NCBI RefSeq assembly: GCF_003334405.1
Contig: NZ_QOWM01000002.1
Source: Escherichia coli
GTDB lineage: Bacteria > Pseudomonadota > Gammaproteobacteria > Enterobacterales > Enterobacteriaceae
Strand: one strand, 5' to 3'
DNA: 64,000 nucleotides
Position numbers and translations under genes: made by a program. The notes beneath the pieces are model-generated. The model saw nothing but the letters and a program-made list of their open reading frames with translations. It did not search any database and had not been told where the DNA came from. Shown one piece after another: positions 20,699-21,042 of the stretch (position 1 is its first letter; every line of letters begins with the position of its first letter).

Positions 20699-20762
20699 GA
20701 TGCCCTCCAATATGGTTATTTTTTATTGTGAATTAAGATAGGTGAGTACGACGTAAAAAGAT

Positions 20763-20778
20763 GTGAAGCAAATCACAT
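20763..20778 (-). promoter_or_regulatory. CRP binding site in galP promoter
   Basis: tgtgaagcaaatcaca is a perfect TGTGA-N6-TCACA palindrome. Confidence 0.6.
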
Positions 20779-20780
20779 CA

Positions 20781-20796
20781 GTGTAATCGCTTACAC
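20781..20796 (-). promoter_or_regulatory. GalR/GalS-type operator in galP promoter
   Basis: gtgtaatcgcttacac is a 16-bp palindrome matching the gal operator half-site GTGTAA/TTACAC. Confidence 0.55.
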
Positions 20797-21042
20797 TAAC
20801 ATTTATCTTAGTTATGATTTAAGTGCATGAAAATAATTGAGTTATATCATCATAGATTAAACGCTGTTATCTGCAATTAAGACTTTACTGAAAAGAAATG
20901 TAACAACTGTGAAAACCGAATAATAATATGAAAATATTACAAATCTTTGTCTGTTGTGGTTGGTGTAATCGGTTTCAGTTGTGATGATAATCTGCGGTGA
21001 AACGTGATCAGGAAGAATGATGTTATTGTGCGGGCGGTTTTT

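Follow-up and report, generated by a model that had tools for sequence, protein, structure and literature searches.

The galP promoter-operator of Escherichia coli pairs a CRP site with a gal operator at a spacing conserved across Enterobacteriaceae

We analyzed a 64-kb stretch of Escherichia coli DNA (64,000 nucleotides, called the window below) and found that a CRP site and a GalR/GalS operator lie side by side upstream of galP, in what is the characterized and already known promoter-operator of this gene. We consider it very probable that the region as a whole is the known CRP-dependent galP promoter, on which GalR and GalS act by anti-activation from a site centered at −60.5. The published galP operators, CRP site, and NagC operator match the window sequence base for base (PMC5110547, PMC4287617, PMC3098098). 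The identities of the sites, their occupancy in vivo, the dependence on CRP, and the antagonism by GalR all come from our analysis or from the cited papers. Confirmation of these sites brings no new knowledge of E. coli biology, and the comparative points are modest: beyond what is published for galP, they are the constancy of a 19-bp spacing in 75 species, a strong NagC site found only in Escherichia, and a conserved block at about −174. GalP is the main low-affinity galactose transporter and also carries glucose in PTS-minus strains; its promoter serves as a textbook example of an AND gate with two inputs. Earlier work on the galP regulatory region was reportedly done by Weickert and Adhya in 1993, Semsey et al. 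in 2007, and El Qaidi et al. in 2009.

The galP coding sequence, for a galactose/H+ symporter, occupies 19304..20698 on the minus strand with its ATG at 20698, as given by the open reading frame list, the RefSeq annotation, and the match to MG1655; metK is annotated in RefSeq at 21122..22276. The pair of sites sits in the 423-bp metK–galP intergenic region, and the strand of the window is antiparallel to galP. An intrinsic terminator for metK (21078..21102, minus strand; 10-bp stem with 6 GC pairs and a T-run in the terminator scan) lies just past the metK stop codon and marks the upstream edge of the galP control region. Between this terminator and the distal galP operator, at about 21040..21070, lies a palindromic unit that resembles REP elements, GCCGGATGCGGCGTGAACGCC..., and the aligned regions of other Escherichia (L002–L004) carry extra REP-like sequence. 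The GC content of 20699..21040 is 32.7%, versus 51.8% for the whole window, in line with the AT-rich upstream region described in an initial annotation of this DNA. The window is E. coli K-12 DNA: bases 20600..21200 are 100% identical to MG1655, and this stretch was found in 5,426 of 5,426 complete E. coli genomes. About half of the E. coli genomes match the 601 bp at only 90–95% identity, probably because of the extra REP-like sequence.

The CRP core, TGTGAAGCAAATCACA, maps to 20762..20777 with its center at 20769.5 (about −41.5), and the full 22-bp site spans 20759..20780. All 10 of the 10 core positions match TGTGA-N6-TCACA, and this TGTGAN6TCACA pattern occurs once in 64 kb versus 0.05 occurrences expected. 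We scored the window with a CRP matrix made from 105 ChIP-seq sites of a published table, leaving galP out (PMC4287617). The galP site scored 16.4 bits, which ranks second in the 64-kb window and exceeds 89% of the 105 training sites. Read on the galP strand, the same site is TGTGATTTGCTTCACA, an in vivo CRP ChIP-seq target at galP in ETEC H10407 (PMC4287617); galP is absent from the CRP ChIP-exo supplements. Elsewhere in the window, three further CRP sites with high scores match 16-mers of the ChIP-seq table exactly (PMC4287617): 3416..3431 is TGTGATGTGGATAACA, the nupG entry; 29422..29437 is the reverse complement of CGTGTTGTAGATCACA, the cmtB entry; and 42586..42601 is TTTGATGCACCGCACA, an entry inside ygfI. 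A NagC-like 23-mer at 29438..29460 (14.4 bits) is flanked by two CRP-like sites near cmtB.

Two GalR/GalS operators were found upstream of galP. The proximal operator, GTGTAATCGCTTACAC, lies at 20781..20796 with its center at 20788.5 (about −60.5) and is the published OI(galP); the distal operator, CTGAAACCGATTACAC on the galP strand, lies at 20963..20978 with its center at 20970.5 (about −242.5), 182 bp upstream of the proximal one, and is OE(galP). Both are listed as known operators in Table 1 of PMC5110547. The proximal operator is symmetric at 14 of 16 positions and matches the consensus GTGNAANCGNTTNCAC perfectly. When we searched for the 16-bp hyphenated dyad GTGNAANC.GNTTNCAC, the proximal operator had 0 mismatches and the distal operator 1. 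Only these two matches with at most one mismatch exist in 64 kb, both in the metK–galP intergenic region, versus 0.16 expected. A GalR matrix built from seven published operators of galE, galR, galS, and mglB, again with galP left out (PMC5110547), gave 20.2 bits for the proximal operator (the highest score in the window, exceeding all seven training operators) and 15.6 bits for the distal operator (rank 2). In the published genome-wide analysis, too, the proximal operator comes first by matrix score (25.1), its GalR ChIP-chip signal of 115.4 is the strongest of those listed, and deletion of galR up-regulates galP (PMC5110547). Deletion of galS alters the response of galP to cAMP, that is, its input function (PMC2516365). 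In another strain, E. coli SCPM-O-B-8794, the proximal operator is GTGTAATCGATTACAC (L002, 2403..2418), a perfect 16-bp palindrome compared with 14 of 16 positions in K-12. The central six bases of its CRP site differ from K-12 at one base, and the operator and CRP differences of this strain are restricted to non-contacted positions.

The spacer between the operator and the CRP core is 3 bp long (TCA, 20778..20780), and therefore the CRP and operator centers are 19 bp apart. The 22-bp CRP site at 20759..20780 abuts the operator at 20781..20796, with zero free base pairs between them. The initial annotation was right that this is the galP control region with a CRP site and a GalR/GalS operator, as judged by annotation, matrices, and published sites, and it placed the operator correctly; however, it put the CRP core one base off, at 20763..20778, and gave the separation as 2 bp. 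It also saw a perfect CRP palindrome, a description that suits the symmetric arms (TGTGA/TCACA, extendable to GATGTGA/TCACATC) but not the central 6 bp, which are asymmetric. Its suggestion that both proteins bind the same face of the DNA does not follow from a center-to-center distance of 19 bp, which corresponds to about 1.8 turns and a roughly 70-degree offset; the position that counts is that of the operator, at about −60.5 as at galETK P1. Matrix scans had been proposed as the check on this annotation, with low scores counting against it; the CRP, GalR/GalS, and NagC sites instead rank 2, 1, and 1 in the window. Of the published parts of the switch, it recognized the CRP site and the proximal operator; the distal operator (20963..20978) and the NagC operator (20715..20737) escaped it.

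The core promoter was located on the minus strand between the CRP site and galP. The −10 hexamer is TATCTT at 20735..20740 (about −12 to −7), and we infer a transcription start at 20728 (±1 nt), 7 nt downstream of this conserved −10 and 41.5 bp from the CRP center. The galP ATG is then at +31, and a Shine-Dalgarno sequence, GGAGGG (20703..20708, minus strand), recognized from the sequence and nearly invariant in 75 species, lies 4 nt upstream of it. The positions −41.5 and −60.5 may be off by 1–2 bp because the start was placed from the conserved −10. At a spacing of 16–18 bp from the −10, 0–1 of 6 bases match TTGACA, and a consensus promoter scan returned no −35/−10 pair on the galP strand; its hits were on the plus strand only and at chance frequency (2 found versus 1.6 expected). 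The promoter thus has no −35 element and therefore depends on cAMP-CRP. In agreement, the literature describes PgalP as inactive without cAMP-CRP, with GalR inhibiting the activation, which yields AND logic. Given the estimated start, CRP at about −41.5 would correspond to a class II arrangement.

We compared 80 galP orthologues from Enterobacteriaceae, scanning one genome per species. The operator and the CRP core are exactly 19 bp apart in 75 of the 80, and no other spacing was seen. Across these 75 species the 56-bp operator–CRP segment aligns with zero gaps. In one arm of the CRP site, GTGA never changes; in the other arm, TCACA, the T and the second C are likewise fixed, with at least 90% conservation at the first C and the first A. 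Within the operator, the bases that are invariant or nearly so are TG.AA.CGATTACA. The 3-bp spacer appears as 18 different triplets among the species, and the N6 of the CRP site varies freely. The distance between the CRP site and a TAnnnT −10 is constant in 74 of 75 species, with the hexamer reading TACCCT in 50 and TATCTT in 4. The proximal operator scores 16.3–20.5 bits in 75 of 75 species, and the distal operator lies 181–185 bp upstream of it in 70 of 73. Within Escherichia, the spacer DNA is polymorphic and the regulatory blocks are not.

Could the matches nevertheless be accidents of an AT-rich spacer, with no regulatory role? Such DNA does give many weak matches to NagC sites and CRP flanks, for example a NagC-like sequence at about −97. 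However, the expectations per window are 0.05 for the CRP core and 0.16 for the operator, the sites hold the top matrix ranks, the segment is conserved without gaps in 75 species next to diverged flanking DNA, and the literature contains in vivo occupancy and reporter data. We consider a chance origin practically inconceivable.

The same conservation bears on a reading in which the two dyads form RNA hairpins, for instance a back-up terminator for metK read-through, rather than protein sites. On the galP strand the CRP dyad is followed by TTTTT, and the terminator scan flagged 20779..20760 (minus strand; 7-bp stem, 6-nt loop, T-run). Two hairpins are predicted for the corresponding 56-nt RNA (−16 kcal/mol, z = −3.6), but any dyad-symmetric pair of operators would fold likewise. 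In 72 distinct orthologues, covariation was 0.067, versus 0.068–0.110 in slid controls; the inner pairs are constant, and 30–55% of species lack pairing at the outer positions. What stays invariant coincides exactly with the bases that CRP and GalR recognize, whereas the loop and spacer vary. Moreover, CRP and GalR both occupy galP DNA in vivo (PMC4287617, PMC5110547), and metK already has a strong terminator upstream. With neither covariation nor an Rfam family behind it, we rejected the hairpin or terminator reading, which we regard as highly improbable.

How could a repressor bound next to CRP silence the promoter? In the arrangement that we propose, cAMP-CRP at about −41.5 would recruit and activate RNA polymerase. 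A GalR or GalS dimer at about −60.5 would occupy the DNA beside the upstream CRP subunit, the stretch on which the alpha-CTD usually docks, and we infer that its binding would cancel CRP-dependent activation while CRP stays bound. Transcription would thus need both cAMP (no glucose) and galactose (repressors released). The initial annotation had spoken of competition or cooperation between the two proteins: functional interplay is indeed documented, but the annotation left the direction open, and the known relation is antagonism. The weaker distal operator would probably raise the occupancy of the proximal operator, or the local repressor concentration, through GalR–GalR contact. NagC at its site over the −10 and the start would, in Escherichia, further block polymerase directly by steric hindrance.

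An alternative is that binding is mutually exclusive, so that GalR or GalS on the proximal operator, with or without a loop to the distal one, sterically evicts CRP. The 22-bp CRP site abuts the 16-bp operator without a free base pair, the conserved 181–185 bp between the two operators is compatible with a loop, and a modelling study mentions a proposal in which CRP is kept off gal promoters by looped gal repressors (PMC2516365). Against this, galETK P1 has an identical 19-bp geometry. Exclusion would also work with sites placed closer together, so a distance that is always 19 bp in 75 species points to a stereospecific arrangement and not just to overlap. We therefore consider eviction of CRP unlikely. 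Anti-activation, or "contact inhibition," appears the most likely mechanism because galETK P1 shares the 19-bp geometry, and a spacing fixed to the base pair in about 75 species, the same as at galETK P1, supports stereospecific anti-activation.

The NagC operator, CTTAATTCACAATAAAAAATAAC, spans 20715..20737 on the minus strand, is centered at 20726 (about +3), and overlaps the −10 hexamer and the predicted start. The NagC site that FITBAR lists upstream of galP in its Table 2, cttaattcacaataaaaaataac, is 20737..20715 on the galP strand, and the same paper cites an experimental demonstration that NagC strongly represses galP (PMC3098098). With a NagC matrix made from the 10 non-galP sites of FITBAR Table 1 (PMC3098098), the operator scored 22.0 bits, rank 1 in the window (next best, 14.9) and within the range of the 10 training sites (16.8–24.5 bits). 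High-affinity NagC operators are 23-bp quasi-palindromes with invariant TT/AA at ±5,6 and C/G at ±11 (PMC4288165). CTTAATTCACAATAAAAAATAAC fits this definition (t6 t7 / a17 a18, C at both ends), and a galP-lacZ fusion with the single NagC site is described in the literature as repressed about 5-fold.

The distribution of the NagC operator differs from that of the GalR/CRP pair. It scores 22.5 bits in the four Escherichia sampled (K-12, another E. coli, an Escherichia sp., and E. albertii); in 71 further species of Enterobacteriaceae with the GalR/CRP module (among loci L005–L081), the score of the equivalent zone does not exceed 6.7 bits. This pattern suggests that NagC control of galP was acquired within Escherichia; the strong site restricted to Escherichia may be one minor point that is new. 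A second NagC-like site at 20814..20836 (about −97) scores 3–5 bits in K-12 and up to 13.9 bits in some genera, values that are indistinguishable from background in such AT-rich DNA.

Between the two operators, a phylogenetic footprint marks a conserved block, TTGTTACATTTCTTTTCAGTAAAGTCTTAA (20877..20906, minus strand), with TGTTACA at 20899..20905 (about −174). TGTTACA lies 112.5–114.5 bp upstream of the proximal operator center in 54 of 75 species. The block gave no GalR or NagC matrix hit and no Rfam match. A NagC site in the block was rejected: the sole TT-N9-AA register has non-conserved TT/AA and a low matrix score. A candidate upstream sigma-70 promoter in the block, GTTACA-17-CTTAAT, lacks the key A at −11. 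The block resembles the right half-site of a gal operator.

Remodelled galP promoters occur in 5 species. In Enterobacter sp. ENT03 and kpr-6 (L051, L061), a stretch at about −85 to −60 from the galP ATG contains a consensus TTGACA −35 followed at once by a gal operator (TTGACAATTGTGTAAGCGATTACAT), which lies in the promoter spacer; a CRP site is absent. These promoters seem to have exchanged the presumed class II architecture for one that works independently of CRP and carries its operator within the core promoter. In three species of Silvania and Leclercia (L052, L053, L062), the proximal operator and an intact CRP core are absent, the metK–galP spacer is shorter, and one operator-like site is left at about −130 from the ATG.

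As a tentative scenario, which we would call plausible rather than probable, the 19-bp GalR/CRP module and the distal operator would be ancestral to Enterobacteriaceae, the NagC site would be recent and confined to Escherichia, and the TGTTACA block would be the site of another factor. If so, the coupling of galactose uptake to amino-sugar status would be a lineage-specific regulatory rewiring. The comparison may be of use to those interested in the evolution of cis-regulatory logic and in the engineering of galP expression.

The galP arrangement has a close relative in P1 of galETK. In galETK (locus L082), OE lies at 208..223 and the CRP core at 227..242, with a 3-bp gap and 19 bp from center to center; the P1 start is 41.5 bp from the CRP center, in agreement with the published positions of OE (−60.5) and CRP (−41.5). 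At P1, according to a review, OE-bound GalR shares a face of the DNA with RNA polymerase and inhibits open-complex formation by contact, and the galETK literature cites work on the simultaneous interaction of polymerase, repressor, and CAP. Like galP, galETKM P1 has its operator directly upstream of a CRP site, of class II at P1 and probably also at galP, and GalR antagonizes CRP-activated transcription there. The two promoter regions differ in other respects. Only galETKM has a CRP-independent P2, activated by GalR at OE, whereas galP has a single, strictly CRP-dependent promoter. Both arms of the CRP site conform to the consensus at galP, but at galETKM the left half (TTTAT) is weak. Binding of NagC over the start is a further feature that sets galP apart. 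The second operator of galETKM is downstream (+53.5), in a loop that encloses the promoters and needs HU. At galP, in contrast, both operators are upstream, 182 bp apart at about −60.5 and −242.5, so the layout of the gal repressosome, with operators flanking the promoter, was not found there. With both operators upstream of the promoter, unlike at galETK, the repressosome model is not simply transferable to galP.

The mglBAC promoter, also of the gal regulon, shares with galP the co-regulation by CRP and GalR/GalS. At mglB, the sites for repressor and activator overlap in part, and a monotonic input function is described (PMC2516365). The galP sites, in contrast, abut without overlap.

The CytR-CRP promoters deoP2, cdd, and nupG offer a further parallel, as there too a LacI-family repressor neutralizes CRP activation from an adjacent site. 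CytR depends on CRP for good binding: the two bind cooperatively, in most cases with CytR placed between two CRP dimers. The galP promoter differs from these promoters in having a strong, autonomous GalR operator (20 bits) and only one CRP site.
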